From contig JAGLRQ010000053.1 of NCBI GenBank assembly GCA_023136205.1, positions 1 through 11,631 of the forward strand: a stretch of DNA of 11,631 nucleotides, in the 5' to 3' direction. This stretch comes from Candidatus Auribacterota bacterium. Its GTDB lineage: Bacteria; Auribacterota; UBA6266. Shown one piece after another: positions 1 through 11,631 of the stretch. The translations under genes were made by a program, and so were the position numbers. The notes below the pieces were generated by a model. It was given only the letters and a program-made list of their open reading frames with translations, was not told the DNA's origin and made no database searches. Within the stretch, counting starts at the first letter, position 1, and each line of letters begins with the position of its first letter.

Positions 1-52
1 CATCTGCCTTCTAAGCAGAAAGTCGTTGGTTCGAGTCCAACCGGGCGTGCCA
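1..52 (+). tRNA. tRNA-Arg (anticodon TCT), 3' portion; the 5' part lies off the left edge
   Basis: Anticodon stem tctgc (3-7) pairs with gcaga (15-19). The 7-nt loop cttctaa (8-14) has U33 and A37 in place, giving anticodon TCT (10-12). Variable loop aagtc (20-24). T-arm gttgg/ttcgagt/ccaac (25-41). Acceptor 3' strand cgggcgt, discriminator g, genome-encoded CCA (50-52), then a T6 run. Confidence 0.8.
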
Positions 53-102
53 TTTTTTCTTAGAGCTGTTTTTCCTGCCGGCCTTATTTTAAAAATATTA
101 CT

Positions 103-130
103 TTGACATACGTGAAAAGAGTTTTAAAAT
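103..130 (+). promoter_or_regulatory. Candidate sigma70-type promoter for the glmM-like/glmU-like gene pair
   Basis: TTGACA (103-108), a 16-nt spacer, then TAAAAT (125-130). It lies about 75 nt upstream of the ATG at 207. Sequence match only. Confidence 0.4.
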
Positions 131-206
131 GGAGTTTTCTCCGCATTAGCAGGGGTTATGGCGGAATGAAGGCTGAGGGAAAGAGTTAACGGAAGGGAAA
201 ACAATC

Positions 207-1562
207 ATGAGCAAGCTGATTGTAAGTGTTTCAGGGGTAAGAGGAATAATCGGGGATTCATTAACGCCCGAGGTTGCTTTTCATTTTGGCGCTGCGTTTG
301 GGAGCCTGAACAAGGGAGGTAAAATTGTTCTGGGCAGGGATTCAAGGGTAAGCGGCCCCATGTTAAGTTCAGCTGTTGTTGCGGGGCTTGTTTCTACCGG
401 CTGTAAGGTAGTGGATATAGGCATAACATCAACACCGACGGTTCAAATAATGACCAAAGAGTTAAATGCTGACGGAGGGATTGAAATAACCGCCAGCCAT
501 AATCCGGTTATGTGGAACGGACTCAAATTTATGTCGGCTGATGGGCTTTTTGTAAGCGAAAGAACTGCAGAAAAGATTAAACAGGCTGCCTTGAATAAAG
601 AGTATTCTTTTATGTCCTGGGATAAGCTTGGAAGTATCAGCCGAGATTCATCGGCCGTTAAAACCCATATTCAGAAAGTTCTTTCGCTCCCTTACCTTGA
701 TGTGGATGCTGTGAGAAAAAGGAGGTTTAAAGTAGTTGTTGATACAGTAAATGGAGCCGGGGGCGGCATAATTCCTGAACTTCTTAAGCGGCTCGGGTGT
801 GAAGTAACGGTTTTAAACGAGGAGATGAACGGGCATTTTGCGCATGAGCCTGAGCCTCTTCCTAAAAACCTAAAACAGCTTTCCGATGAAATTGTGAAAA
901 GAGGGGTGGATATAGGTTTTGCAGTAGACCCTGACGTTGACAGATGTGCCATTGTAGATGAAAAAGGGACTCCGATTGGGGAAGAATATACCCTTGTAAT
1001 AGCAGCAAAGCTGGTTCTTTCAAAGAAAAAAGGAAAGGTAACCGTAAATGTTTCAACATCCATGGCAATTGATGATGTTGCCCGGGAGTATGGCTGTCCT
1101 GTGGAAAGAACAAGGGTGGGAGAAATTAATGTGGCACTAAAGATGAAAGATAACAAATCAGTTGTGGGCGGAGAAGGTAATGGCGGGGTGATGATTCCGG
1201 ATATTCATATAGGAAGGGATGCTCCGGTAGCCTGTGCTCTTGCCCTGCAGTATTTACTTGAATCAGGGAAAACACTTTCTGAGATAAAAGAAACTCTTCC
1301 AAAGTATGTGATATTTAAAGGGAAGGTAGATCTTGAAGATAAAGAACCAAAACTTATTCTCGAAGGGTTAAAAAAGCTTATGGCAAAGGAAAAGGTTGAT
1401 GAAACAGACGGCCTTAAAATTATAAGGGATAAATCATGGGTTCATATCAGGGGGTCTAATACTGAGCCTATAGTAAGAATTTATGCAGAGGCGGAAAATC
1501 TTAAAAAAGCCAAAAGGCTGCATGATGAATTTAGAGAAAAAGTTTTGAGGGTTACCAGATAA
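207..1562 (+). CDS. glmM: alpha-D-phosphohexomutase, phosphoglucosamine mutase type (GlmM/PMM-PGM family)
   Basis: 451-aa ORF carrying all four family signatures in order: phosphoserine loop TASHNP, metal loop FAVDPDVDR, sugar loop GGEGNGG, phosphate loop RGSNTEP. The N-terminus SVSGVRG resembles the archaeal/PMM-like subgroup rather than E. coli GlmM (GTDGIRG). The GlmM assignment rests on context: a GlmU-like gene lies 50 nt downstream and glmS is adjacent. SD ggaaggg precedes the ATG. Confidence 0.7.
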   Translation: MSKLIVSVSGVRGIIGDSLTPEVAFHFGAAFGSLNKGGKIVLGRDSRVSGPMLSSAVVAGLVSTGCKVVDIGITSTPTVQIMTKELNADGGIEITASHNPVMWNGLKFMSADGLFVSERTAEKIKQAALNKEYSFMSWDKLGSISRDSSAVKTHIQKVLSLPYLDVDAVRKRRFKVVVDTVNGAGGGIIPELLKRLGCEVTVLNEEMNGHFAHEPEPLPKNLKQLSDEIVKRGVDIGFAVDPDVDRCAIVDEKGTPIGEEYTLVIAAKLVLSKKKGKVTVNVSTSMAIDDVAREYGCPVERTRVGEINVALKMKDNKSVVGGEGNGGVMIPDIHIGRDAPVACALALQYLLESGKTLSEIKETLPKYVIFKGKVDLEDKEPKLILEGLKKLMAKEKVDETDGLKIIRDKSWVHIRGSNTEPIVRIYAEAENLKKAKRLHDEFREKVLRVTR

Positions 1563-1612
1563 AAAATAGGGTTAAAATAGTTATGTGTTACAGGCCTAAT
1601 TAGGAGTTTGAT

Positions 1613-2869
1613 GTGAAAATGATATGTATCTTTGAAGATGGGGGATATGCGGATTTATTACCATTGGTTTATATGCGCCCTGTATATGAGCTTCGCTGCG
1701 GAATAGATCTTCTTAGAGATAAAATAATAAGAAAATACCCTGCCTCGAAAGTAAACCTGTTTTGCCGTGATTACCTTTCTGCAACATTAAAGGAGCGGAC
1801 AACAGACGCTATAAACGAGATAGTTAATGGAAACAAAGGCACTATTTTCATAAACGGGCGTATACTTTTAAACAGGCAAATACCGGTTGAGGGAAAGGAA
1901 GAGGTAGGTATTAAAGGCAAAACGCTTGTATATGCGAGATTGAATAAAGATCACTCGAAATTAATGACCCCTGAGATGTTTCTTGAAGGAAAGGCCCTGG
2001 CAAAGCTTAAGGGTAAAGTTCCATTTGTAAAGGTTGAAGACATTACGGTTTTTAAATACTCGTGGGAGATAATCCATGAGAACGGAAAACAGATATGTAA
2101 AGACTTTGATGACCTGGCAGAAGGCGGAAAAATAAAGGGCAAGCTCTACGATGGTGTTCATATACTTGATAAAAAGAATTTATTTATAGATGAAGGTTCT
2201 ATTGTTAAGCCTGGAGTTGTGTTGGATGCGAGTGAGGGCTCTATATATATAGGCAAAGGGGTAAAGGTATTTCCTAATGCGGTGATAGAAGGTCCCGCGT
2301 ATATAGGGGATAATAGCACGGTAAAAATAGGGGCAAAGATATATAGAGGAACGAGTGTGGGAGAGGTTTGCAAGGTAGGAGGAGAGGTTGAGGAGAGCAT
2401 ATTTCATTCTTATTCGAACAAACAGCATGAAGGATTTCTTGGACATGCATATATCGGCCAGTGGTGCAACATTGCAGCGGACACAAATGACAGCGATTTG
2501 AAAAATAATTACAGTACTGTCAGGGTCTATGTTAATGGTAAATATGTTGACACAGGGGAAGTGTTTGTGGGGCTGACAATGGGAGATCATTCCAAAACCG
2601 GGATTAACTCGATGTTTAATACCGGTACGGTTATTGGTTTGAATGTTAATATTTTTGGAGCTCAGCTTCCTCCAAAATTCGTTCCTTCATTCTGCTGGGG
2701 GGCTAGCGGTGTATTTGTTGTTTATCAGCCCGATAAAGCAATAAAGGTTGCCGAGAGAGTTATGGCAAGAAGAAAAATCAAATTAACAAAAGCTCAAAAA
2801 GATCTTTTTATGTTTCTTTATAAAATGACCGAAAGTGAGCGAGACTTGAACCGGATTATTCAACTGTAA
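1613..2869 (+). CDS. GlmU-like sugar-phosphate nucleotidyl/acetyl-transferase with a left-handed beta-helix ('alternative bacterial GlmU'-type)
   Basis: 418-aa ORF. The C-terminal half is rich in hexapeptide [LIV]-G-x4 repeats (IYIGKGVKVFPNAVIEGPAYIGDNSTVKIGAKIYRGTSVGEVCKVGGEV...). The N-terminal ~190 aa resemble a nucleotidyltransferase fold but lack the canonical GxGTR(M/L) loop (IFEDGGYADLLPL instead). GTG start at 1613 lies 6 nt after AGGAG (1602-1606); ATG at 1619 is an alternative. The gene sits between the mutase and glmS. Confidence 0.6.
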   Translation: MKMICIFEDGGYADLLPLVYMRPVYELRCGIDLLRDKIIRKYPASKVNLFCRDYLSATLKERTTDAINEIVNGNKGTIFINGRILLNRQIPVEGKEEVGIKGKTLVYARLNKDHSKLMTPEMFLEGKALAKLKGKVPFVKVEDITVFKYSWEIIHENGKQICKDFDDLAEGGKIKGKLYDGVHILDKKNLFIDEGSIVKPGVVLDASEGSIYIGKGVKVFPNAVIEGPAYIGDNSTVKIGAKIYRGTSVGEVCKVGGEVEESIFHSYSNKQHEGFLGHAYIGQWCNIAADTNDSDLKNNYSTVRVYVNGKYVDTGEVFVGLTMGDHSKTGINSMFNTGTVIGLNVNIFGAQLPPKFVPSFCWGASGVFVVYQPDKAIKVAERVMARRKIKLTKAQKDLFMFLYKMTESERDLNRIIQL

Positions 2870-4682
2870 CACTTTTTGCCAGGTTCCTCGGCTGATCGAT
2901 ATTACATCCTCTCTTTACCGCTATGAAATAAGCGAGCAGCTGAAGAGGTATTACCGTTAAAAAAGGGTTTAAAACATCAATTGTTTTCGGTATATATATT
3001 GTATGATCGGCTAATTTTTTAATCTTTTTATCGCCTTTATTTGCTACGGCGATAACTTTTCCGTTTCGTGCTTTTATTTCTTCAATATTAGAAAGTATCT
3101 TGTCATAAACATTATCGCTTGTCGCAATAACAACAATGGGCATGTCTTTATCTATAAGAGCAATAGGCCCGTGCTTCATTTCTGCCGCCGGGTATCCTTC
3201 AGCGTGGATGTAAGATATTTCTTTAAGTTTCAATGCTCCTTCTAAGGCTGTTGGGAAATTATATCCCCTTCCCAGATAGAGAAAATTGTTTTTGTTAGAG
3301 TAGAGGTTTGCAATTTTTTTAAAGCTATTTTCTTCTTTTAAAATAGCTTTAATTTTGGATGGTATGGTTTTTAACTCTTTTAAAATAGATTTAGCCCTCT
3401 TTTTTGAGGTATTGCGCATACGGCCGAGGTGAAGCGCAAGTAAAAGCAAAACCGTTACCTGGGAAGTGAATGCCTTGGTTGACGCTACGCCGATTTCAGG
3501 CCCCGCATGAAGGTATATACCCCCATGTGATTCCCTGGAGATAGATGATCCAACTGCATTACAAATACCCATAATTGTTGCATTTTTTGTTTTTGCTTCA
3601 TGGATAGCGGCCAGAGTATCTGCGGTTTCTCCGGATTGGCTGATTGCAATTACAAGTGTTTGTTTATTTAATATGGGGTTGCGGTATCTAAATTCAGAGG
3701 CATATTCGACTTCAACGGGTATTCTTGCTATGTCTTCTATCATGTATTCGCCGATAAGTCCCGCGTGCCATGAGGTACCGCATGCGGTAATAACAATTTT
3801 TTCTATATCCTTCAATTTGTCTTCAAAAACAAGGAGTCCGCCGAGTTTGGATGTTGAATGTTTCTCATCGATTCTACCTCTCATGGAGTTAGTTATTGAT
3901 TCAGGCTGTTCATGTATTTCTTTGAGCATAAAATGTTCAAAGCCGCCTTTTTCAATCATATCTATATTCCATGAGACCTCTTCGATTTTTTTTGTTACCG
4001 ATTTATTATGGATTGTTTTTATATCAAAAGAATTTCTTCTCATGACGACCATTTCATCGTTTTCTAGATGAATTATTTTTTTTGTGTGCCTTAATGTCGC
4101 GGCGATGTCTGATGCCACAAACATTTCGTTTTTGCCGACGGCAACTATAAGGGGGCTTCCTTTTTTTGCGGCAACAATTTCATTGGGGTTTTTACAGCAT
4201 ATTACAGCAATGCCATAGGTTCCTTCTATGAGCTTTAACGCTGATCTGACCGCGTCTGAAAGATTACCTTTGTAATATTGTGATATAAGGTGGGCAAGCA
4301 CTTCGGTGTCTGTATCGCTCAAGAACCTAACGCCTTTTTTAAAAAGCTTTTTTCTAAGGTAATCATAATTTTCAATTATGCCGTTGTGCGCTACGGCTAT
4401 TTCCCGGGATTGGTCAAAGTGAGGGTGTGTGTTTTTGAGGAGCGGGGCTCCGTGTGTTGCCCACCTGGTATGTGCAATTCCAATATGCCCGGGTAAACTC
4501 TTTTTTTTGAGTTTTTTTTCGAGCTTTGATATATTTCCTACAGATTTAGTACATGATATGTGATTGTCATTAATGGTAGCTATGCCTGAAGAATCGTAAC
4601 CCCTGTACTCAAGGCGCTTTAGTCCGCTAAGTAATATTTCCTTAGCGTTTCGCTTTCCGATATATCCGATTATTCCGCACAT
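2856..4682 (-). CDS. glmS: glutamine--fructose-6-phosphate aminotransferase (isomerizing)
   Basis: 608-aa ORF starting MCGIIGY, the Ntn Cys nucleophile. It has a class-II glutaminase domain, two SIS domains (GTSWHAG..., SQSGETADT) and the characteristic C-terminus ...LAKSVTVE. Confidence 0.95.
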   Translation of the reverse strand: MCGIIGYIGKRNAKEILLSGLKRLEYRGYDSSGIATINDNHISCTKSVGNISKLEKKLKKKSLPGHIGIAHTRWATHGAPLLKNTHPHFDQSREIAVAHNGIIENYDYLRKKLFKKGVRFLSDTDTEVLAHLISQYYKGNLSDAVRSALKLIEGTYGIAVICCKNPNEIVAAKKGSPLIVAVGKNEMFVASDIAATLRHTKKIIHLENDEMVVMRRNSFDIKTIHNKSVTKKIEEVSWNIDMIEKGGFEHFMLKEIHEQPESITNSMRGRIDEKHSTSKLGGLLVFEDKLKDIEKIVITACGTSWHAGLIGEYMIEDIARIPVEVEYASEFRYRNPILNKQTLVIAISQSGETADTLAAIHEAKTKNATIMGICNAVGSSISRESHGGIYLHAGPEIGVASTKAFTSQVTVLLLLALHLGRMRNTSKKRAKSILKELKTIPSKIKAILKEENSFKKIANLYSNKNNFLYLGRGYNFPTALEGALKLKEISYIHAEGYPAAEMKHGPIALIDKDMPIVVIATSDNVYDKILSNIEEIKARNGKVIAVANKGDKKIKKLADHTIYIPKTIDVLNPFLTVIPLQLLAYFIAVKRGCNIDQPRNLAKSVTVE

Positions 4683-4757
4683 AGTTATAAATTAGTAGAT
4701 AGGGTTAAACAAAAGAAGATTATTGCCATATAATTGAAATATTGTAAAGCATAATTT

Positions 4758-6260
4758 TTAGCATATTTTGATATTATACTCCTTAACTTTCCTATCCAGC
4801 CTGTTTCTGGAAATTCCGAGAAGTTTGGCTGCTTTACTTTTGTTGCCGGTTGTATATTGAACAGCTTTTTCTATATGGTTTTTTTCAGCAGATTTTAGCA
4901 TCCAATCAGTTGTTATCGGCGTGCGTTTCGTCCTTATTTCAGCAGGAAGATCTTCTGCTTTGAGAATTTTACCTGTTCCCAAGACCATGGCTCTCTCAAC
5001 CGTATTCTTAAGCTCTCTGATATTTCCATGCCAGTTGTATGAAAGAAGAATATCCATTGCCCTGGGTTCAATTGACGTTATTACTTTTCCCATAGATTTT
5101 GTCTGTTCTTCAATAAGGTGTGTAAGCAGGTCGGGGATATCTTCCTTATGTTCTCTTAATGGAGGCATGTAAAGTTCTATTACCTTTACCCTGTAATACA
5201 GGTCTTCCCTGAAGCGTCCTTCTTCAATTGCTTTCTCGAGGTTTTCATTGGTAGCCGCAATTATGCGGGCCTCGGATTTTATGGTTTCCGTTCCGCCTAC
5301 CCTTTCAAATTCTTTTTCCTGCAAAACCCTTAAAAGTTTTACCTGGATATGGGGTGATAGCGTTCCGATTTCATCCAGGAAAATAGTTCCTTTTGCGCAA
5401 AGCTCGAATCGTCCTATTTTTCTGGCAACAGCTCCTGTAAAAGCGCCTTTTTCATGTCCAAAGAGTTCGCTTTCAAGCAATGTTTCCGGTAGAGCTGAGC
5501 AATTGATACATATGAAGGGATGATGTTTCCTCGGGCTTTTTATGTGGATCATCCTTGCTGCGAGTTCTTTGCCGGTACCGCTTTCACCTCGAATCAGTAT
5601 GGTAGAATCAGTCCCCGCGACGGTATTTATTAGTTCATGAACGGCCTTCATTTTATTGCCGGATCCTATCATTTTTGTTGATTGGGGTATTTGGGTTTTC
5701 AGGTTTTTGACTTCTATCCCCATTTCGTTATGAAGTCGGGCATTTTCAATGGCGATAGCTGCCTGGTTTGTAAATGCGACCAGCAAAGAAAGGTCTTTAT
5801 CATCGAAATTGCCGGATTTGTTATTGATAACTTCGATTACTCCAATTATTTTCCCCCTTATTTTTATGGGGGCGCAGATAATCGAACGTGTCGGGTAATT
5901 TAGTTTCTTACTTATATCTCCGAACCATCGTTTATCTTCCTGGACATTATTGGAGATGGTGGGTTTCCCTTCATTTATTACCCATCCTGCAATCCCCTGT
6001 CCCGCCTTTATCTTAAAATTCTTTATCTCGTTTGCCTTTTTACCGGTAACTGTTTTAAATGCAAGGTAATTAGCGTTTTTTTCAATCAATATTATAGAAC
6101 TTGCTTCAGAATTTAAAACATCACTTGCCGTTTTCAGTACTCGTTCCAGGACTTCTGTGATGTCCAGAGTCGAATTGATGATCTGATTTATTTCAAAAAG
6201 TTTTAGAAGGTTTGTTTTTCCGATATCTTTAAAAAGTTCAGTAGTTTCTTTAGTTTCCAT
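4758..6260 (-). CDS. sigma54-dependent transcriptional activator (bEBP) with GAF sensor, AAA+ domain and Fis-type HTH
   Basis: The N-terminal ~170 aa are GAF-like (ILIEKNANYLAF..., GIAGWVINEGKP..., IGVIEVINN). The central AAA+ domain has Walker A GESGTGKE, the sigma54-contact loop GAFTGA, Walker B IFLDEIG and the R-finger region. The C-terminus carries the HTH GNKSKAAKLLGISRNRLDRKVKEY. There is no receiver domain. The track starts at a TTG (6266). I prefer the ATG at 6260, which lies 8 nt after an AAGGA SD on the - strand. Confidence 0.9.
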   Translation of the reverse strand: METKETTELFKDIGKTNLLKLFEINQIINSTLDITEVLERVLKTASDVLNSEASSIILIEKNANYLAFKTVTGKKANEIKNFKIKAGQGIAGWVINEGKPTISNNVQEDKRWFGDISKKLNYPTRSIICAPIKIRGKIIGVIEVINNKSGNFDDKDLSLLVAFTNQAAIAIENARLHNEMGIEVKNLKTQIPQSTKMIGSGNKMKAVHELINTVAGTDSTILIRGESGTGKELAARMIHIKSPRKHHPFICINCSALPETLLESELFGHEKGAFTGAVARKIGRFELCAKGTIFLDEIGTLSPHIQVKLLRVLQEKEFERVGGTETIKSEARIIAATNENLEKAIEEGRFREDLYYRVKVIELYMPPLREHKEDIPDLLTHLIEEQTKSMGKVITSIEPRAMDILLSYNWHGNIRELKNTVERAMVLGTGKILKAEDLPAEIRTKRTPITTDWMLKSAEKNHIEKAVQYTTGNKSKAAKLLGISRNRLDRKVKEYNIKIC

Positions 6261-6298
6261 TGTCAATTTCCTTTTTCAATATGTTTCATTATATGACA

Positions 6299-6315
6299 TG
6301 CTTCATTTTGAAGCA
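6299..6315. promoter_or_regulatory. 17-bp perfect palindrome TGCTTCA-N3-TGAAGCA; candidate bEBP operator/UAS
   Basis: tgcttca (6299-6305) and tgaagca (6309-6315) are exact reverse complements. The site lies ~40-55 nt upstream of the bEBP start and ~190 nt upstream of the -24/-12 element. Its format resembles NtrC-family sites. No binding data. Confidence 0.3.
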
Positions 6316-6368
6316 ATGTTTTATAACTATCTATTTCATAAGGGGTTATATAATATATTCTATCTGGC

Positions 6369-6386
6369 GTTGCTCCAAAATGCAAC
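6369..6386. promoter_or_regulatory. Inverted repeat GTTGC-N8-GCAAC; second candidate UAS
   Basis: gttgc (6369-6373) and gcaac (6382-6386) are reverse complements. The centre lies ~120 bp upstream of the -24 element, a typical enhancer distance for sigma54 promoters. Confidence 0.25.
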
Positions 6387-6497
6387 CATTGTTTTTATTG
6401 TTGTAATATATGAAGGGGCTTTTGTTTGATACTTAAAAAGTTCTCTATTTTTTTTATCGACGGTATAGTGTATTTTTTAAGTATATGAGGGATTAAA

Positions 6498-6513
6498 TGG
6501 CATGGCTTTTGCT
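6498..6513 (+). promoter_or_regulatory. sigma54 (-24/-12) promoter
   Basis: TGGCATGGCTTTTGCT matches the consensus TGGCAC-N5-TTGCW with a single C-to-T deviation and exact GG-N10-GC spacing. The predicted start is ~20 nt before the ATG at 6544, with SD AAGGAGG (6531-6537) in between. The sigma54 activator gene is divergent from it. Confidence 0.7.
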
Positions 6514-6543
6514 CTGTTATAAACTGGGCAAAGGAGGTGCAAG

Positions 6544-6942
6544 ATGAAAAAGCTAATTTTAATGTTGGTTGCAGTATCAATGGCAACAGGAGTTATTACA
6601 ACTGCTTCGGCAGGAGAGAAAGAATGGGCTACAGCAGGCAAAATACTTGCAGGAGTTACAGCGTATCAGTTTTTGAGCGGGAACTTACTCCCACAGCAGA
6701 GAGCATATTATGGTTACTCATATTATGCGCCAAGACGTTTAAGACATTATTATCAAACACCAAGGCATTATTCACCAAGAAGGTACCGTTCCTCAAACAC
6801 GTATTATGTTCCTTATTCACCAAGAAGGCACCGTTCTTCAAACACGTATTATGTTCCTTCATACACAACGTATACAACTACATATGCTGCTAACTATTCT
6901 GAGCCTGTTGTAATTGTAGAAGAAAACAATCGTTGGTGGTAA
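6544..6942 (+). CDS. secreted Tyr/Arg/Pro-rich tandem-repeat protein, unknown family
   Basis: Strong SD. Sec signal MKKLILMLVAVSMATGVITTASA|GE. By my count the ~109-aa mature part contains 19 Tyr and 12 Arg. It carries reiterated [AST]PRR motifs and two near-identical 15-aa units, SPRRYRSSNTYYVPY and SPRRHRSSNTYYVPS. The tail is TTYTTTYAANYSEPVVIVEENNRWW. I recognise no family. Confidence 0.7.
   Translation: MKKLILMLVAVSMATGVITTASAGEKEWATAGKILAGVTAYQFLSGNLLPQQRAYYGYSYYAPRRLRHYYQTPRHYSPRRYRSSNTYYVPYSPRRHRSSNTYYVPSYTTYTTTYAANYSEPVVIVEENNRWW
6771..6860 (+). repeat. 2 x 45-bp in-frame tandem repeat
   Basis: 6771-6815 and 6816-6860 differ at 3 of 45 positions. They encode the 15-aa units above. 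More degenerate PRR-containing units lie just upstream (about 6730-6770). Confidence 0.9.
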
Positions 6943-6946
6943 TTTT

Positions 6947-7444
6947 ATGAAAAAGCTTATAATTACATTAGTCCTGGGTGCCGCTTTTTGCGGCACCTGC
7001 CTCTTCCCTGAAGATGTTCTGGGAGACGAAAAATTATTCTCATCGAATTGCGTTATAGTTGAGGGAGGGAAGATAAGAGTTGTTGGTACGGGGAAGCCTC
7101 CGGTATCTTCGTATTATGGGAAATCTCAAAAGAGGCTTATGGCTCGCCGGGCGGCGATCATTGACGCTTATAGGAATCTTGCCCGAACCCTTGCTGGTTT
7201 TTCAGGTAGGGCTATAAAGTCTGGCAACATAAAATCAAATGGATATATAGTTGACGCGAGATGCGTAGAAACAAGATATTACAAAGACGGAACGGTTCAG
7301 ATTATTCTGGAAATGCCTGGAATTAGTAAAAAAAGAGTTTGCAAAAGAGAGGGCATAAAGGTTTATAATGATGAATTGGTTTCAATCGATAGAAAAACTT
7401 TTGCAGTAAGTGAACAGGAATGGTTAGGAATGAAACCCAAGTAG
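6947..7444 (+). CDS. exported FlgP/LPP20-like protein, single module
   Basis: The start lies 4 nt after the previous stop. Signal-like N-terminus MKKLIITLVLGAAFCGTC. The lead-in strand IRVVGTGKPP is followed by KRLMARRAAIIDAYRNLARTLAG. This matches the helix signature (RLMA-RAA-lDAYR-LAE) I recall from Vibrio FlgP and the LPP20 lipoprotein family. Confidence 0.6.
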   Translation: MKKLIITLVLGAAFCGTCLFPEDVLGDEKLFSSNCVIVEGGKIRVVGTGKPPVSSYYGKSQKRLMARRAAIIDAYRNLARTLAGFSGRAIKSGNIKSNGYIVDARCVETRYYKDGTVQIILEMPGISKKRVCKREGIKVYNDELVSIDRKTFAVSEQEWLGMKPK

Positions 7445-7531
7445 GGTCATGGGTCAAGGGTGAGGAGAAATTTGTATTCCCCAGAACCTAAAACCCACAA
7501 CCAATGACCCATGGTAAGGAAGGAGGATGAA

Positions 7532-8836
7532 ATGTTAAGGAAATTAGGAGTACTGGTTTTGATGGCGAGTTTGAGTATGCCTCTGGTTTGTATGCCGGTT
7601 TATGCTACAGCCAAAGGTCAGCAGAAGCTTATGGCGGAAAGAGCGGCGAAGGTTGATGCCTATAGAAATCTTGCTGAAAGGGTGAAAGGGCTTAGAATAG
7701 ACGCTAACACCTATGTCAGGGATTTTGTCGCGGAAAGCGACCAGATTAATACATCATTTGATCATTTTATAAAAGGCGCTGCCATTGTTCCGGGAAGCGA
7801 TAGATGGGATGGTGAAGTTTACACTTTAAGAGCCAGGCTTACGTTAGAACAGGTAGTTAAATTTATTAAAACATACTACAAGAAAACAAGGTTTCTTTTT
7901 TGGACGCATACAAAAATTCAGCAGATAGAGACTTACAATAAGGAGTATAAGGTGATAGAGGTTGAAGGTTCGGGGACGATCAGAACCGCTGATCCTTCTG
8001 AGAATTTACAGACTAAACCTGCTAGGATTACCGATGGGATACCCGGCTGGGAAGGAGTTACAGCTCGTGGCAGGTTGATGGCTGAAAGAGCTGCAAAGGT
8101 TGATGCGTATAGAAATCTTGCTGAAAAGGTTAAAGGAGTAAGAATCACTTCAAGTACTTATGTCAGAGACTTTGTGGCGGAGAATGATCAGATAAATACT
8201 GCACTGGACACGTATATAAAAGGCATTCGTTTGTCAGGCCCGTACAGATATTTGCCTGACGGAATAGCTGAATGTGATGTTGAAGTAACTATAGTGGATG
8301 TAATAAAAGAAGTTCATGAAATATGGAAACGGTTTGAAAGAAGAGGCTATAGATTTAGAAAAGTAAGGTGGAAGAAAGTAAGGTGGGAAGAGGTTGTAAC
8401 TCAGCAGAATATTCGCGTGATAAGAGCGACTGGTTCCGGTGTTCCTCCGGAGAAATATATAGAAAAGGGGCCTGTGTCTCAGGCCCCTTCCCAGGCTGTT
8501 TCTGCGCCTTCCTGGGCTTCTCAGGCTGTGTCAGCCAAAGGTTATGGGGTTCCGAGGGAAGGTGAGGCCGGAACCGTTGCAAAGCTTAATGCGGGTAGGG
8601 CGGCTGAGGTAGACGCAAGAAGAAATCTTGCTGAGATTATTTATGGAGTAAAAATTGACGCGAATACAACTGTCAGGGATTTTGCTGTTCAAAATGACCA
8701 GGTGAATGCGAAAGTCAAAACTTTTATGGCAGGTGCTAAAGTAAGCGATCCTCTTTTTCTTGAGGATGGAAGCGTTGAGGTAACAGTTTCGATTTTATTG
8801 CGGGGTTTATGGGATTCCATAAAAAAAAGCAGGTAA
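7532..8836 (+). CDS. exported protein with three tandem FlgP/LPP20-like modules
   Basis: I prefer the ATG at 7532, 5 nt after AGGAGG (7521-7526), over the track start at 7511. Signal MLRKLGVLVLMASLSMPLVCMPVYA|TA. The three modules begin LMAERAAKVDAYRNLAERVKGLRIDANTYVRDFVAESDQINT, LMAERAAKVDAYRNLAEKVKGVRITSSTYVRDFVAENDQINT and LNAGRAAEVDARRNLAEIIYGVKIDANTTVRDFAVQNDQVNA. A basic RKVRWKKVRW repeat and an SQA-rich linker lie between modules 2 and 3. Confidence 0.65.
   Translation: MLRKLGVLVLMASLSMPLVCMPVYATAKGQQKLMAERAAKVDAYRNLAERVKGLRIDANTYVRDFVAESDQINTSFDHFIKGAAIVPGSDRWDGEVYTLRARLTLEQVVKFIKTYYKKTRFLFWTHTKIQQIETYNKEYKVIEVEGSGTIRTADPSENLQTKPARITDGIPGWEGVTARGRLMAERAAKVDAYRNLAEKVKGVRITSSTYVRDFVAENDQINTALDTYIKGIRLSGPYRYLPDGIAECDVEVTIVDVIKEVHEIWKRFERRGYRFRKVRWKKVRWEEVVTQQNIRVIRATGSGVPPEKYIEKGPVSQAPSQAVSAPSWASQAVSAKGYGVPREGEAGTVAKLNAGRAAEVDARRNLAEIIYGVKIDANTTVRDFAVQNDQVNAKVKTFMAGAKVSDPLFLEDGSVEVTVSILLRGLWDSIKKSR
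7631..8200 (+). repeat. Intragenic duplication (modules 1 and 2 of the triple-module gene)
   Basis: Hand alignment of 7631-7753 with 8078-8200 gives 94/123 identical nucleotides and 36/42 identical residues. A third, more diverged copy starts near 8585. A separate 15-bp tandem (aaagtaaggtgg at 8360-8371 and 8375-8386) encodes KVRW-KKVRW. Confidence 0.8.
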
Positions 8837-8892
8837 AATAAATTGATGTCTTTGGCTGGTAAATACAATTGGTTTAGAAAGAGAGGGATCCA

Positions 8893-9018
8893 ATGAAAAA
8901 GGCTGTAATTTTAATAGTTTTGTTTTCTGTCATTTCAATTGTAATTGTGGGATGTACCGAAAAGTATGTTGTTACCGAAAGGACCGTGGTTGAAACAAGA
9001 GAAGTTGTTGTAGAATAG
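8893..9018 (+). CDS. 41-aa lipoprotein, below the ORF-track length cut-off
   Basis: My own translation: MKKAVILIVLFSVISIVIVGCTEKYVVTERTVVETREVVVE*. SD GAGGG (8883-8887) lies 5 nt before the ATG. It has a textbook n/h-region and lipobox IVG|C. The stop is 11 nt before the next gene's ATG, whose SD GGGGAGG overlaps that stop. The 21-aa mature peptide is an alternating Val/Thr/Glu/Arg beta-strand-like sequence. Confidence 0.6.
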   Translation: MKKAVILIVLFSVISIVIVGCTEKYVVTERTVVETREVVVE

Positions 9019-9029
9019 GGGAGGTTGAA

Positions 9030-10163
9030 ATGAAACGGTTAATATTATTATTTTTCGTTTGTATATTTGTAACAACTTGCGTTTTTGCTCAGATGGAAAC
9101 TACTATAGTGGCGAAGGGCATGGCTGCCGTAAGGGGGGTCGGCCCGGATGCTGTTCTCAGCGCGAGAGATGAGGCGATTAACCGTGCTTTAAGGAATGCT
9201 GTGGAACAAGCGGTGGGCAGCCTTATTGATTCTGAAACTATGGTCCAGAATTTTCAGCTGCTGGATGACCAGGTTTATTCAGAGGTAAAAGGATATGTAA
9301 AGAGTTATGAGATTGTAGATGATAATAATGGTGAAGGGGGGATTTATCAAACAAGGGTTAAAGCTGTTGTTTTACTGGGTACCCTAAGAAAGAACCTTAA
9401 AGCTTTTAATATAGTCAAGGAAAAGCTTAACAAACCCAGAATCATGATTGTTTTTTCTGAGACCGTAGATGGCCTTGAGCAACCCGGACAAACGGTTCAA
9501 ACCGGAATGGAAAAGAGTTTTTTGAACAACGATTTTAAACTGATAGATAAAGCTCAAATGGAAGCCGTGAAATTACGGGATGCTGCTGTTTACTATGAAA
9601 ATCCTACAGAAGCAGTTGCTCTTGGCAGGAGGTTCGGAGCTGAGGTTATTGTAGTTGGACAGGTCTCTTCCGATTTAGTTGATTCCAGCTGGCCGTATGG
9701 CGTTTGTGTCTTTGCCTATGAAGCGCAGGCCACCGCAAAAGCTATTGATGTTGATTCTGCCCAGGTTATAGTTTCAGACGGTGCCAGTGCCCAGGCAAGG
9801 GCCGGAGGAAGAGTCCCTTCGGCGCGCAAAGCAGCCAAGGAAGCAGGCGTGAAGCTGGCAGGGAAAATGATGGACCAAATAGTTGAAAACTGGAGAACCA
9901 AAGTTTACAATACAATGGATATTCAGATTGTCGGCTTTAATGCTGACGCCGATAACCGCCTTGCTTTTGAGAAGGCACTTGAGCAGGTCAGGGGCGTAAG
10001 AAGTGTAAACGAAAGAAGTTTTTCAAGGGATGTAGTGATTATAGATGTAACAATTGACGGGGCATTGTATAAAGGTTTTGAAGAGATAATAAATACCCTT
10101 CCTGATGTTGATGTAAAAATTAAGGGAAAAACTCAAAACAGGATAGATTTAGATTTTTTATAA
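9030..10163 (+). CDS. exported FlgT-like multidomain protein: LPP20/FlgT_N-like head, TolB-N/CsgG-like alpha/beta domain and a C-terminal domain
   Basis: Signal MKRLILLFFVCIFVTTCVFA|QM. The N-domain reads IVAKGMAAVRGVGPDAVLSARDEAINRALRNAVEQAVGSLIDSETMVQNF...YQTRVKAVV, which fits the pattern x-G-x-A...AR-xA-xxAL-xxA-xQ-xG I associate with FlgT_N/LPP20. The middle region (PRIMIVFSE...FKLIDKAQ...GAEVIVVGQV) resembles the CsgG/LpoB/TolB-N type fold. The family call is by eye only. Confidence 0.45.
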   Translation: MKRLILLFFVCIFVTTCVFAQMETTIVAKGMAAVRGVGPDAVLSARDEAINRALRNAVEQAVGSLIDSETMVQNFQLLDDQVYSEVKGYVKSYEIVDDNNGEGGIYQTRVKAVVLLGTLRKNLKAFNIVKEKLNKPRIMIVFSETVDGLEQPGQTVQTGMEKSFLNNDFKLIDKAQMEAVKLRDAAVYYENPTEAVALGRRFGAEVIVVGQVSSDLVDSSWPYGVCVFAYEAQATAKAIDVDSAQVIVSDGASAQARAGGRVPSARKAAKEAGVKLAGKMMDQIVENWRTKVYNTMDIQIVGFNADADNRLAFEKALEQVRGVRSVNERSFSRDVVIIDVTIDGALYKGFEEIINTLPDVDVKIKGKTQNRIDLDFL

Positions 10164-10242
10164 GATTGTAACACTTTTACATTGAGTGGTGTATTATCTG
10201 TATATAATTTGTGGTGTGCTAAGAACTTACAGGGGTATTAAG

Positions 10243-11298
10243 ATGCTTTTTATGAAAAGATGGTTTTTTATAGTGGGCATGTCTTTTTTGATTATTGCTG
10301 TTGTCGGCCTTGATGGTACTGCTGCCGCGAGGAGAAGAACATCTTACGATAGAAAAGAAAGGCCGGCCCGAAAAAAGAAGAAAAAGAAAGTTGTCCAGCA
10401 GATGGTGCTTCCTCCTATTGTTGGGCCGAGAAAGACTATAGCGGTTGCCGATTTCGAGAACAAGGCAGGTGCTCAAGCGCGGTGGAATCTCGGAAACGGT
10501 ATGGCAGAAATGCTTACCACTTCCCTGGTAAACACGAACAGATTTATTGTTGTTGAACGCCAGAATATCCGGGGTATTATTCAGGAACAGGATTTTTCTG
10601 TAAGCGGCAGAACAATTAATGTCGGGGCCCCTGAGATAGGGCGCCTTTTAAATGCTCAGATTCTTGTAAGCGGAGCCATAACAGAATTTTCACAGCGTTT
10701 TTTTGATTCTGGAAGCCTTTTTCAATATAAAGGTGTTTCTCTGGGGGTGAAATCAGCCACTGCTCATGTAGCCCTTAATATAAGGATGTATGATACTACT
10801 GCCGGTGAAGTAATTGCCTCTAAGCGTGTTGAAGGCAAGGGGAATGTTTCCGGCCTTAGTATCGGCTATTCTGAAAGTGATTGGGGGGTTGATTTTGATA
10901 ACTTTAAAGCATCTCCACTTGGTAAGGTAACTCAACAAGCGATTGACGAAGCGGTCTATTATATCTGTTTGGAGATGCAGAAGGTTTCATGGCAGGGTAC
11001 TGTTGTTACTATCAAAGGCGGTAAAATATATCTTAATTGCGGCGCGAATTCCAATGTTAAAGCCGGTGATGAATTTGAGGTTTACAGAAAGGGCGAGGAG
11101 CTTATTGATCCTGATTCAGGGCTGTCTCTTGGTTTTGAGACAAAAAAAATAGGATTGGTTAAGGTTTTCGAAGTTGAAGATAAGTTTTCGCTTGCAGATT
11201 CTGTTTCGGGCGGAAAATTTGAGAGGGGAGATATAATTAAATTTATTCCACCACCACCGGTTCCATTGCCCGAGGAGGGTACAGTAATATCTCAATAG
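10243..11298 (+). CDS. CsgG-family outer-membrane channel-like protein with a polybasic N-terminal linker and an extra C-terminal domain
   Basis: It aligns by eye to E. coli CsgG block by block: KTIAVADFENKAG...GNGMAEMLTTSLVNTNRFIVVERQNIRGIIQEQ matches KIFVSVYNIQDETGQ...ATAMLVTALKDSRWFIPLERQGLQNLLNER, ILVSGAITEF matches IMVEGSIIGY, and HVALNIRMYDTTAGEVIAS matches QIAVNLRVVNVSTGEILSS. I prefer the ATG at 10243, 7 nt after AGGGG, to the GTG at 10186. There is no Cys after the hydrophobic segment, so it is not a canonical lipoprotein. A RRR...RKKKKKK tract spans 10324-10389. The C-terminal ~100 aa (GKIYLNCGANSNVKAGDEFEVYRKGEELIDPDSG...GDIIKF) end in PPPPVPLPEE. Confidence 0.75.
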   Translation: MLFMKRWFFIVGMSFLIIAVVGLDGTAAARRRTSYDRKERPARKKKKKKVVQQMVLPPIVGPRKTIAVADFENKAGAQARWNLGNGMAEMLTTSLVNTNRFIVVERQNIRGIIQEQDFSVSGRTINVGAPEIGRLLNAQILVSGAITEFSQRFFDSGSLFQYKGVSLGVKSATAHVALNIRMYDTTAGEVIASKRVEGKGNVSGLSIGYSESDWGVDFDNFKASPLGKVTQQAIDEAVYYICLEMQKVSWQGTVVTIKGGKIYLNCGANSNVKAGDEFEVYRKGEELIDPDSGLSLGFETKKIGLVKVFEVEDKFSLADSVSGGKFERGDIIKFIPPPPVPLPEEGTVISQ

Positions 11299-11301
11299 GG
11301 A

Positions 11302-11383
11302 AAATCACAAATTCCAAATCCAAAGTTACAATGACCGAAACACTTGTTCCTATTTGTGATTTGTTGTTTGTAAATTGTGATTT
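11302..11383. repeat. Three copies of an 11-nt motif (one inverted, two direct) between the two CsgG-like genes
   Basis: aaatcacaaat (11302-11312) is the exact reverse complement of atttgtgattt (11352-11362). A third copy, aattgtgattt (11373-11383), has one mismatch and ends 7 nt before the SD GGAGG (11391-11395). Confidence 0.6.
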
Positions 11384-11401
11384 CTAAAGGGGAGGGTTTT
11401 T

Positions 11402-11631
11402 ATGAAAGGGTTTTTATCATGTATATTTGTTTGGGTTTTTGTTCTTTTGGTTTCTTATGCCGGTGCCGGCATAAAAAAAACCATAGCAGTTTCTGATTTC
11501 GAAAACAAAGCGGGGTTCAGTTCCGAATGGAATCTTGGCAGCGGCATGGCAGAAATGGTTACCACTTCCCTTACCAATTCGGGTAGTTTTATTGTCGTGG
11601 AAAGGCAGAATATTCAGGGTATCCTTCAGGA
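11402..11631 (+). CDS. second CsgG-family paralogue, 5' partial; continues past the right edge
   Basis: Absent from the ORF track because no stop is reached. SD GGAGG lies 6 nt upstream. My translation: MKGFLSCIFVWVFVLLVSYAGAGIKKTIAVSDFENKAGFSSEWNLGSGMAEMVTTSLTNSGSFIVVERQNIQGILQ. It is collinear with residues ~65-130 of the preceding gene but lacks the polybasic linker. Confidence 0.75.
   Translation, partial: MKGFLSCIFVWVFVLLVSYAGAGIKKTIAVSDFENKAGFSSEWNLGSGMAEMVTTSLTNSGSFIVVERQNIQGILQ

Follow-up and report, generated by a model that had tools for sequence, protein, structure and literature searches.

What does a small exported protein rich in tyrosine and arginine do at the head of an operon of LPP20- and CsgG-like genes? 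This question is raised by a contig of a Candidatus Auribacterota bacterium (GenBank assembly GCA_023136205.1, contig JAGLRQ010000053.1), of which we analyzed positions 1 to 11,631 of the forward strand; this stretch of 11,631 nucleotides is referred to as the window. An open reading frame (ORF) with an ATG start at 6544..6942 on the plus strand encodes the 132-residue protein in question, here termed the Tyr/Arg protein. An earlier note on this DNA had proposed that it is the substrate, possibly a fiber subunit, of CsgG-like pores encoded downstream. Our analysis revealed that the protein carries the conserved N-terminal module (N-module) of a large family of exported proteins, and that linkage of this module to LPP20 and CsgG-like genes and to a sigma-54 promoter is confined to Auribacterota. 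We tentatively favor, at less than even confidence, the view that the Tyr/Arg protein stays within the envelope, where it would serve a ring assembly resembling FlgP, FlgT, and CsgG as adaptor, tether, or cement.

Architecture of the Tyr/Arg protein

The Tyr/Arg protein begins with a Sec signal peptide, MKKLILMLVAVSMATGVITTASA (residues 1 to 23; 6544..6612, plus strand), which holds the strongest hydrophobic window (Kyte-Doolittle 2.0) and ends in the cleavage site ASA|G; after the signal peptidase I (SPase-I) cut, the mature protein starts with GEKEW. A Sec signal had been claimed in the earlier note, and the -3/-1 pattern of SPase-I is kept in 139 members of the family described below. Sec-dependent export is therefore likely. 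The mature protein of 109 residues contains 19 Tyr and 12 Arg, exactly as previously counted. Tyr makes up 17.4% of it compared with 2.8% in the neighboring proteins (binomial P ~3e-10) and Arg 11% compared with 5.7% (P = 0.02), while there are merely 4 Gln, 6 Asn, and 5 Gly. The protein is cationic, with a net charge of +9. The clusters AYYGYSYY and TTYTTTY, the [AST]PRR motifs (APRR, SPRR, and SPRR, plus TPRH), and the hydrophobic and acidic C-terminal end PVVIVEENNRWW were all found as described in the note.

Three regions follow the signal peptide. The first is the N-module, residues 24 to 52 (GEKEWATAGKILAGVTAYQFLSGNLLPQQ; 6613..6699, plus strand), the helix that defines the family. An AlphaFold2 (AF2) model, for which an alignment of 59 sequences served as input, placed a helix at residues 25 to 44 with a predicted local distance difference test (pLDDT) score of 75 to 87, and residues E27, W28, A29, G32, K33, L35, and G37 are near-invariant across the family alignments. 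The second is a Tyr/Arg-rich middle, residues 53 to 117 (6700..6894, plus strand), with 17 Tyr and 11 Arg in 65 residues and with the [AST]PRR motifs; in alignments its length and sequence differ among homologues. It is predicted to be disordered, since the AF2 model has a pLDDT below 55 and no sheet throughout residues 50 to 132. The third is a C-terminal module, residues 105 to 132 (PSYTTYTTTYAANYSEPVVIVEENNRWW; 6856..6942 with the stop codon, plus strand), which has the beta-prone and acidic pattern P-S-Y-T-T-Y-T-T-T-Y...S-E-P-V-V-I-V-E-E-x-x-x-W-W. This module is clade specific: it is kept in the closest operon-linked relatives (P0002 to P0006, L014, and L015) but neither in L065, from Candidatus Theseobacter, nor in unlinked relatives.

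The mildly hydrophobic N-module and the many Arg residues after it raise another reading, in which the Tyr/Arg protein is a small inner-membrane protein whose N-module acts as a stop-transfer segment or second transmembrane helix, leaving the Arg-rich tail in the cytoplasm according to the positive-inside rule. However, the module has a summed Hessa insertion energy of +8.3 kcal/mol (family median, +6.7), which is strongly unfavorable, and reaches only 0.7 on the Kyte-Doolittle scale, where the threshold is 1.6; these values led to the rejection of a transmembrane or stop-transfer anchor, and a Lys is moreover invariant in mid-segment. In addition, the variation at cleavage-site position -2 is that of true SPase-I sites rather than that of a helical-hairpin turn. 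An inner-membrane topology is thus very improbable and can be regarded as essentially excluded. The N-module was also considered as an amphipathic helix, which was ruled out by a hydrophobic moment of 0.13.

The N-module defines a large family of exported proteins

The earlier note had recommended sensitive sequence searches, and these uncovered a large uncurated family. A profile built from the first homologues was searched against 1.84 billion cluster representatives (50%-identity clusters), and 378 clusters were recovered at E <= 1e-3 and 39 at E <= 1e-10, which is a lower bound for the family. Its signature is an SPase-I cut followed directly by G-[DE]-[KR]-E-W-A-T-A-G-K-[IV]-L-[TA]-G-[VI], and residues 21 to 37 of the window protein, ASA| followed by GEKEWATAGKILAG, match it. 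Around the cleavage site, position -1 is Ala in 137 of 139 members, position -3 is small, and position -2 is bulky or charged. In the mature chain, these members have Gly at +1 in 136 cases, Asp at +2 in 110, Leu at +12 in 137, and Gly at +14 in 138; the window protein has Glu at +2 (Gly-Glu) rather than the commoner Gly-Asp.

About 25 residues into the mature chain, the family tails diverge and become hypervariable and of low complexity, with an overall composition of 13.5% Pro, 13.4% Val, 11.7% Tyr, and 11.1% Arg. We distinguished tails rich in Tyr, Arg, and Pro, the class of the window protein; tails of the PAPVV type, with a His-rich end in ...GRW or ...CR; tails of WxxGxW repeats (L044, L048, L066, and L091); and a folded-looking domain ending in ...EEYPSIW. 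Family proteins are ~70 to 240 residues long with variable tails rich in Pro, Val, Tyr, Arg, or His, and the window protein, with 132 residues and a tail rich in Tyr, Arg, Ser, Thr, and Pro, fits this description. The genome matches, of which 133 loci were confirmed and 80 of these retrieved, are mainly from Verrucomicrobiota and also from Kiritimatiellia, Lentisphaeria, Auribacterota, and a few others.

Pfam and NCBIfam scans to E = 5 with the protein and nine diverse relatives returned nothing relevant; the sole library match was a weak PXPV-repeat hit in the tail of the relative P0028. A profile search of PDB sequences gave noise only, and a word-index protein search with the N-module profile gave mostly short nameless fragments. 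Among the closest described proteins are the PXPV (PF12778) and WXXGXW (PF12779) repeat proteins of unknown function, which are likewise small, carry a signal peptide, and have low-complexity sequences rich in Pro, Val, Tyr, and Trp; some N-module members carry such tails. The window protein, however, matches neither model, and the family-defining N-module lies outside both. A literature search on PXPV and WXXGXW found nothing relevant. The N-module family is therefore one without a curated model or prior description that can be defined from this analysis.

This family, with at least 378 clusters, consists of small exported proteins in which a highly conserved N-module of ~20 residues is joined to exchangeable low-complexity tails. 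A conserved leader ahead of a variable body usually represents a sorting, docking, or assembly signal. The N-module may be a new N-terminal sorting or anchoring signal of the Planctomycetes-Verrucomicrobia-Chlamydiae (PVC) superphylum, to which most of the family belongs, and its neighbors, either a handle through which an outer-membrane or ring machine receives diverse disordered tails (the FlgP/FlgT/CsgG-like assembly in the case of Auribacterota) or a peptidoglycan attachment site; so specific an assignment is rather improbable at present. If it were true, the family would represent a new class of modular disordered envelope proteins whose Tyr/Arg, Pro/Val/His, or WxxGxW tails can be exchanged for one another. 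The partner of the N-module, once identified, would add to the cell-envelope biology of the PVC group.

Several features of the tails were noted in passing. Verrucomicrobial tails (L098, L104, L106, L112, L113, L116 to L118, L123, and L125) share a conserved ...PAPVVSF.FGFGG... segment, behind which come a stretch rich in His and, at the very end, C-R, C-W, or R-W; Trp is the final residue of 51 of 139 family members. A subfamily combines the N-module with a Cys-containing, apparently folded C-terminal domain (L013 462-959, L023 2151-2645, L029 299-793, L040 1907-2407, and L072 7968-8408); this domain has no Pfam match and shows the pattern ...D-P-I-I-V...RRIYQPRIKGATAYLQVY..C.EWVTIEEYPSIW.

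The reading frame and its 45-bp duplication

Low sequence complexity and two overlapping alternative ORFs (6537-6893 on the plus strand and 6656-6877 on the minus strand) would be compatible with a chance ORF in low-complexity or repeat DNA that encodes no functional protein. Comparison with relatives indicates otherwise. The identical protein is present on six metagenome contigs, diverged homologues (50 to 72% identity) occur in metagenome-assembled genomes of Auribacterota (= Aureabacteria), and same-frame homologues were found in hundreds of clusters. Across residues 24 to 52, comparison of the window with the diverged homologues gave a nonsynonymous substitution rate (dN) of ~0.05 to 0.07 at a saturated synonymous rate (dS), with a dN/dS of ~0.05, and the last 15 residues had a dN of ~0.09 to 0.15 at saturated dS. 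In comparison with the close relative L014, residues 24 to 52 showed four synonymous changes and no nonsynonymous change. The ribosome-binding site AAGGAGGTG (6531..6539, plus strand), 4 nt 5' of the ATG, is invariant in an alignment of four loci, and an indel between relatives is exactly 45 bp long and keeps the frame. By these comparative criteria, ORF 6544-6942 is a real protein-coding gene under purifying selection; the nongene reading is effectively refuted and essentially excluded.

The 45-bp indel reflects a tandem duplication within the gene (6768..6857, plus strand), with units at 6768-6812 and 6813-6857. Tandem Repeats Finder reported a 45-bp unit in 2.0 copies at 6768-6859 with 95% matches and a score of 170, in agreement with the near-exact in-frame duplication that had been described; the copies differ by 2 mismatches in the best register and by 2 to 3 according to the register. 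The repeat units are in frame and encode residues 76 to 90, YSPRRYRSSNTYYVP, and residues 91 to 105, YSPRRHRSSNTYYVP. A duplication of this kind is far beyond chance. Repeat copy number in relatives, a check that had been suggested, bore out the prediction of recent expansion with copy-number variation: L014, at 95% DNA identity to the window, has only one unit, the other being cleanly deleted in frame.

Linkage to LPP20 and CsgG-like genes is confined to Auribacterota

In order to determine how widely the N-module gene is associated with the genes found beside it in the window, the ORFs of 93 loci were searched by phmmer and by profile hidden Markov models (a CsgG profile of 56 homologues and an LPP20 profile of the five window domains). 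Near the N-module gene, only Auribacterota-type loci had LPP20-, LipL46-, CsgG-, or activator-like genes; no such gene lies within +-8 kb in ~70 other genome loci. A further 80 metagenome loci yielded one linked case, an Auribacterota relative; of these 80, 31 extend at least 1.5 kb downstream and had no LPP20- or CsgG-like match. Within Auribacterota, in contrast, the operon and its divergent activator gene are kept in every locus, including that of the distant Candidatus Theseobacter exili. Candidatus Theseobacter has one linked copy and one unlinked copy, the latter with a WxxGxW tail (L091), and P0007, a distant homologue whose tail is rich in Tyr and Arg, stands alone without the operon. 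The linkage to LPP20/CsgG genes and to the sigma-54 promoter described below is thus confined to Auribacterota. The earlier note had named homologues that never neighbor CsgG or LPP20 genes as a finding that would count against its proposal, and this is partly what was observed: none of the loci examined outside Auribacterota has such a neighbor within +-8 kb.

The reverse arrangement also occurs. In Omnitrophota and KSB1, close homologues of the CsgG-like gene form a module of LipL46-like (with an FlgP-like N-terminal domain), CsgG-like, and FecR/LPP20 genes without an N-module gene, so that an add-on accessory fits better than an obligatory cargo. The three-gene core lies at 7864-11027 in L094, 7863-11042 in L095, and 598-2671 in L096, with the gene for the FecR-domain (and LPP20-like) protein convergent or adjacent; in Auribacterota, the same FecR/LPP20 protein is encoded farther downstream, on the other strand (L001 16316-17641; L007 16274-17590). 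This LipL46-like/CsgG-like/FecR module appears to be uncharacterized.

Secretion-type neighbors were sought in the Verrucomicrobiota loci, which showed housekeeping synteny only. In L018 to L093, where the N-module gene lies around position 8001, a divergent gene for a metallo-beta-lactamase (MBL)-fold hydrolase lies upstream in 46 loci, and a hexapeptide protein resembling gamma-carbonic anhydrase (gamma-CA) starts 4 to 100 nt downstream in 34 loci. This close spacing suggests that the N-module gene is cotranscribed with the gamma-CA-like gene in Verrucomicrobiota.

These contexts bear on the reading that the Tyr/Arg protein is independent of its operon partners and shares only their sigma-54 regulation. 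It would then be a general envelope protein, for instance a disordered spacer associated with peptidoglycan or the outer membrane, perhaps attached by its mature Gly-Asp/Glu. The stand-alone position of most family members, including P0007, and their housekeeping context in Verrucomicrobiota agree with this, as does the placement of Gly (136 of 139) and Asp (110 of 139) exactly at the cleavage site. By analogy only, L,D-transpeptidases of Brucella link outer membrane proteins to peptidoglycan through an N-terminal Ala-Asp motif (PMC10787603), and this anchor of Rhizobiales outer membrane proteins resembles the N-module in having a small and an acidic residue at a mature N terminus made by SPase. 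The Brucella proteins are beta-barrels with Ala-Asp, however, whereas the conserved stretch of the window protein runs 20 residues further as a helix and begins with Gly-Glu rather than Gly-Asp; any role of an L,D-transpeptidase is conjectural. The first-gene position and the tight spacing to the second gene, both conserved across deep Auribacterota divergence, also argue against independence, which we consider unlikely.

A sigma-54 promoter precedes the Tyr/Arg gene

The sole consensus match to a sigma-54 (-24/-12) promoter in the window, TGGCATGGCTTTTGCT (6498..6513, plus strand), lies immediately ahead of the Tyr/Arg gene, with the operon genes downstream; the gene therefore has the first, promoter-proximal place ascribed to it previously. 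The core GGCATG-N4-TTTGC is invariant in four diverged loci, and the region upstream of L065 contains the promoter with one mismatch. Such a site was found upstream of Auribacterota copies only: it was absent when searched for upstream of family members in other phyla, with 2 matches in 76 further loci compared with 1 in 1,440 control windows. No sigma-70-like site was found upstream of the Tyr/Arg gene on the plus strand. Sigma-54 control is typical of flagellar ring genes.

A divergent gene (4758..6266, minus strand) encodes an enhancer-binding protein with Pfam matches to GAF, AAA+ (sigma-54), and HTH_8 domains, and it is syntenic in all Auribacterota loci. This protein is likely to activate the operon. 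Between the two genes, two palindromes picked up as stem-loops, TGCTTCATTTTGAAGCA (6299-6315) and GTTGCTCCAAAATGCAAC (6369-6386), both given on the plus strand, are candidate upstream activator sites. Their distance upstream of the sigma-54 promoter is 110 to 200 bp, and the four-locus alignment shows the core of each, GAAGCAA and TGCTC..A.GCAAC, to be invariant. Their likely function is to bind the divergent GAF/sigma-54 activator.

The operon partners resemble ring proteins

Four nucleotides past the stop codon of the Tyr/Arg gene starts the gene for a 165-residue protein, LPP165 (6947..7444, plus strand), with one LPP20/FlgP-like domain. The gap between the two genes is at most 4 nt, or the genes overlap, in the window, L007, L010, and L011, and translational coupling between the Tyr/Arg gene and the gene after it is probable. 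LPP165 matched the LPP20-domain profile at 1.7e-27, partly by construction, since the profile includes its residues 46 to 135; weaker independent support came from a phmmer comparison with the 441-residue LPP20 protein (~6e-11) and from a weak match to FlgP chains. That larger protein, LPP441 (7511..8836, plus strand), contains three LPP20/FlgP-like domains (Pfam LPP20, 1.7e-18 over three stretches) and matches the FlgP chains 8z5n_2, 9yds, and 9yec from flagellar motor structures (E ~3e-6). Further downstream, a 377-residue LipL46-like protein (9030..10163, plus strand; NCBIfam LipL46, 5e-11, below the family cutoff) has an N-terminal LPP20/FlgP-like domain by domain alignment and profile.

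The remaining large genes encode CsgG/FlgT-like paralogues. The first (10186..11298, plus strand) specifies 370 residues with a CsgG domain (Pfam, 6.2e-34) and an FlgT_C domain (1.4e-5), and the match to CsgG PF03783 spans profile positions 9 to 208 of 210. Only the start of the second lies in the window (11403..11631, plus strand), where it is cut by the window end; L003 and L007 contain the complete gene, of 297 aa. In both paralogues, no Cys occurs in a lipobox context. The AF2 model of the 370-residue protein (pLDDT 81.5) was compared with known structures by Foldseek, which matched FlgT of the Vibrio H-ring best (8z5n, 1.3e-18; 3w1e, 4e-18) and then CsgG, with the pre-pore form (4uv2, 4e-10) ahead of the membrane form. 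The next matches were CT253, HpaA, PelC, and GNA1162, and all listed matches are ring or lipoprotein scaffolds. The lead of FlgT is partly due to coverage of both domains; by sequence, Pfam CsgG fits best. Each CsgG protomer contributes two transmembrane beta-hairpins to a barrel of 36 strands. The segment equivalent to the transmembrane hairpin TM1 of CsgG aligns without gaps to Escherichia coli CsgG, and the AF2 monomer has long strands at residues 159 to 174, 189 to 203, and 208 to 223 with lower pLDDT at their tips.

An SHS2-like fold is common to FlgP, Lpp20, and FlgT, the first and last of which assemble into rings associated with the outer membrane (PMC12222027). The window operon is like the Vibrio H-ring and the Campylobacter basal disk in that its LPP20 domains match FlgP and its CsgG-like protein is closest in fold to FlgT. 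Because the CsgG-like partner lacks a lipobox, has an FlgT_C domain and FlgT as its best fold match, and is encoded with LPP20 domains that match FlgP, it is as likely to be a ring scaffold as a secretion pore. Unlike flagellar ring systems, the window operon contains no flagellar genes, and none was found within +-10 kb. Auribacterota of Ace Lake, including Candidatus Theseobacter, have been reported to be without flagella (PMC9324843). Given this reported lack, the absence of flagellar genes nearby, and the likeness to FlgP and FlgT, the operon looks like a nonflagellar relative of the FlgP/FlgT/CsgG ring systems. A literature search pairing LPP20 with CsgG found nothing.

Is the Tyr/Arg protein a secreted cargo?

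The proposal that the Tyr/Arg protein is a substrate of the CsgG-like pores stood in part. The Tyr/Arg gene is syntenic with LPP20/CsgG-like genes in every Auribacterota-type relative, but the presumed pores have the FlgT-like features noted above and no lipobox. On this reading, the protein would be the secreted substrate or fiber subunit of one or both CsgG-family channels; the N-module would serve as the handle, and the body would be threaded through the outer membrane to become a surface adhesive or matrix.

Two known systems offer a precedent. HfaA, a holdfast anchor protein of Caulobacter, is encoded by the first gene of its operon, hfaA-hfaB-hfaD, in which hfaB is CsgG-like. As in the pairs CsgA/CsgB-CsgG (type VIII secretion) and HfaA-HfaB, the window combines a small Sec-exported protein that would be unfolded in the periplasm, a conserved segment after the signal peptide, a repeat body, and an adjacent gene of the PF03783 CsgG/HfaB family. 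In CsgA, the N22 segment binds to CsgG and is by itself sufficient for secretion to be directed (PMC7217966). Consistent with cargo, the Tyr/Arg gene comes first beside two CsgG-family genes, one of which matches the whole Pfam model at 6e-34 and has the gap-free TM1-hairpin equivalent; the synteny is stable throughout Auribacterota; and the beta-prone C terminus, SYTTYTTTY...VVIV, could nucleate aggregation.

The details differ, however. The Tyr/Arg protein has neither the curlin repeat of CsgA and CsgB (PF07012; S-X5-Q-X-G-X-G-N-X-A-X3-Q) nor a Q/N/G ladder, and the AF2 model contains no beta-solenoid. It has no Pfam or NCBIfam match to curlin or HfaA; with HfaA only the layout of a small first gene and a CsgG-family gene is common. 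The protein is thus outside the curlin and HfaA families, and the absence of library matches, together with the predicted disorder, upholds the earlier statement that it is not a classical Q/N-rich amyloid. Unlike N22, its N-terminal segment is a predicted helix, with no sequence similarity to N22. The CsgG-like partners are nonlipidated and carry FlgT_C, and their fold is closest to that of a nonpore ring protein, followed by the CsgG pre-pore rather than membrane form. No CsgE or CsgF family match was found among the operon proteins in Pfam or NCBIfam, and CsgC is likewise not present. Finally, the great majority of N-module family members have no linkage to CsgG genes, in contrast to curli and HfaA, and the CsgG-like core is found without the Tyr/Arg gene in other phyla. 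Curli-like fiber cargo is a possible label for the Tyr/Arg protein, and we regard secretion through the CsgG-like proteins as plausible but less likely than not.

A proposed envelope-retained adaptor of a ring assembly

Functional coupling between the Tyr/Arg protein and the ring proteins is likely in Auribacterota, given that the gene stably occupies the first position, lies close to the second gene, and is under dedicated sigma-54 control. Because the N-module is conserved elsewhere without linkage, the core module exists alone, and the partners are scaffold-like, the protein would be a recruited accessory rather than the purpose of a channel. There is a parallel in flgP-flgQ, in which a small accessory is also encoded with a ring former (PMC12222027), although FlgQ resembles an FlgP repeat and the window protein is a disordered Tyr/Arg-rich chain.

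For the adaptor, tether, or cement that we tentatively favor, we infer the following course. In Auribacterota, an N-module gene would have been recruited to head an operon that depends on sigma-54 and has a GAF-domain activator of its own. The conserved N-terminal helix may dock to a conserved partner or self-associate through a small-xxx-small face, and the C-terminal strand may add onto the beta-rich operon proteins. Between them, the sticky Tyr/Arg linker would make flexible multivalent contacts, for example with peptidoglycan or other polyanions, and this fast-evolving Tyr/Arg/Pro linker would change its length through repeat gain and loss. The analysis establishes the export signal, the pattern of conservation, the disorder, the operon layout, the promoter, and what the partners are; retention in the envelope, docking, and binding chemistry are the conjectural parts of this role.

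Several observations weigh against such a role. The N-module is equally conserved in ~100 loci without an LPP20 or CsgG neighbor, so its partner is probably encoded outside the operon. LPP165 and LPP441 are basic (pI 9.6 to 9.9), as is the 370-residue CsgG-like protein, and the only acidic operon proteins are the LipL46-like protein, the second CsgG paralogue, and the mini-lipoprotein described below; simple charge complementarity therefore fails, and electrostatic pairing of the cationic tail with these basic partners was rejected. The VVIVEE..WW tail is not present in the operon-linked Theseobacter copy. The layout of a signal peptide, a conserved N-terminal segment, and a repeat-rich unfolded body, encoded by a first gene beside a CsgG-family gene, also fits a secreted substrate, as in CsgA N22 and HfaA. 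The adaptor interaction and the envelope location are predictions that we hold at the same tentative level.

The N-module and the nonflagellar ring operon are real, yet they are unexplained, and any mechanism is for now conjectural. If the coupling is real, the operon would be a nonflagellar, sigma-54-controlled relative of the FlgP/FlgT disk and CsgG systems in a poorly known phylum, with a dedicated disordered Tyr/Arg component, and it would provide a handle on the use of envelope rings outside flagella and curli. If the protein were merely another periplasmic low-complexity protein, it would be of modest interest.

Other features of the window

A 41-residue mini-lipoprotein is encoded between LPP441 and the LipL46-like protein (8893..9018, plus strand), with the lipobox IVG|C and a 20-residue mature part, CTEKYVVTERTVVETREVVVE. 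It was also called in L001 to L003, L010, and L011, and is conserved in L010, the version there being MKNITFPMLVILCLISLVFSGCTEKYIMREQVVVETREVVK. It is the only clear lipoprotein of the operon, the CsgG/LPP20-like proteins having no lipobox, and it has a strand rich in Val and Glu that is similar to the ...VVIVEE end of the Tyr/Arg protein. Within the LPP441 gene, a 15-bp tandem repeat at 8360-8391 encodes KVRWKKVRWEE, a basic linker between domains 2 and 3. The 370-residue CsgG/FlgT-like protein has a very basic stretch, RRRTSYDRKERPARKKKKKK, at about residues 45 to 66, after its N-terminal hydrophobic segment; this is odd behind an export signal, and the assigned start codon and topology of this protein are uncertain.

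The only Rfam match in the window is the 3' part of a tRNA at positions 1-49 (RF00005, 37.9 bits), which is cut by the window start. Amino-sugar genes surround the activator gene (window 207-6266) in all Auribacterota loci and encode a GlmM-like phosphomutase, a GlmU-like NTP_transf_4/hexapeptide protein, and GlmS, to which L007 and L009 add NagA and NagB. The glmS gene is on the same strand as the activator gene, 75 nt downstream of it, and cotranscription of the two is possible.

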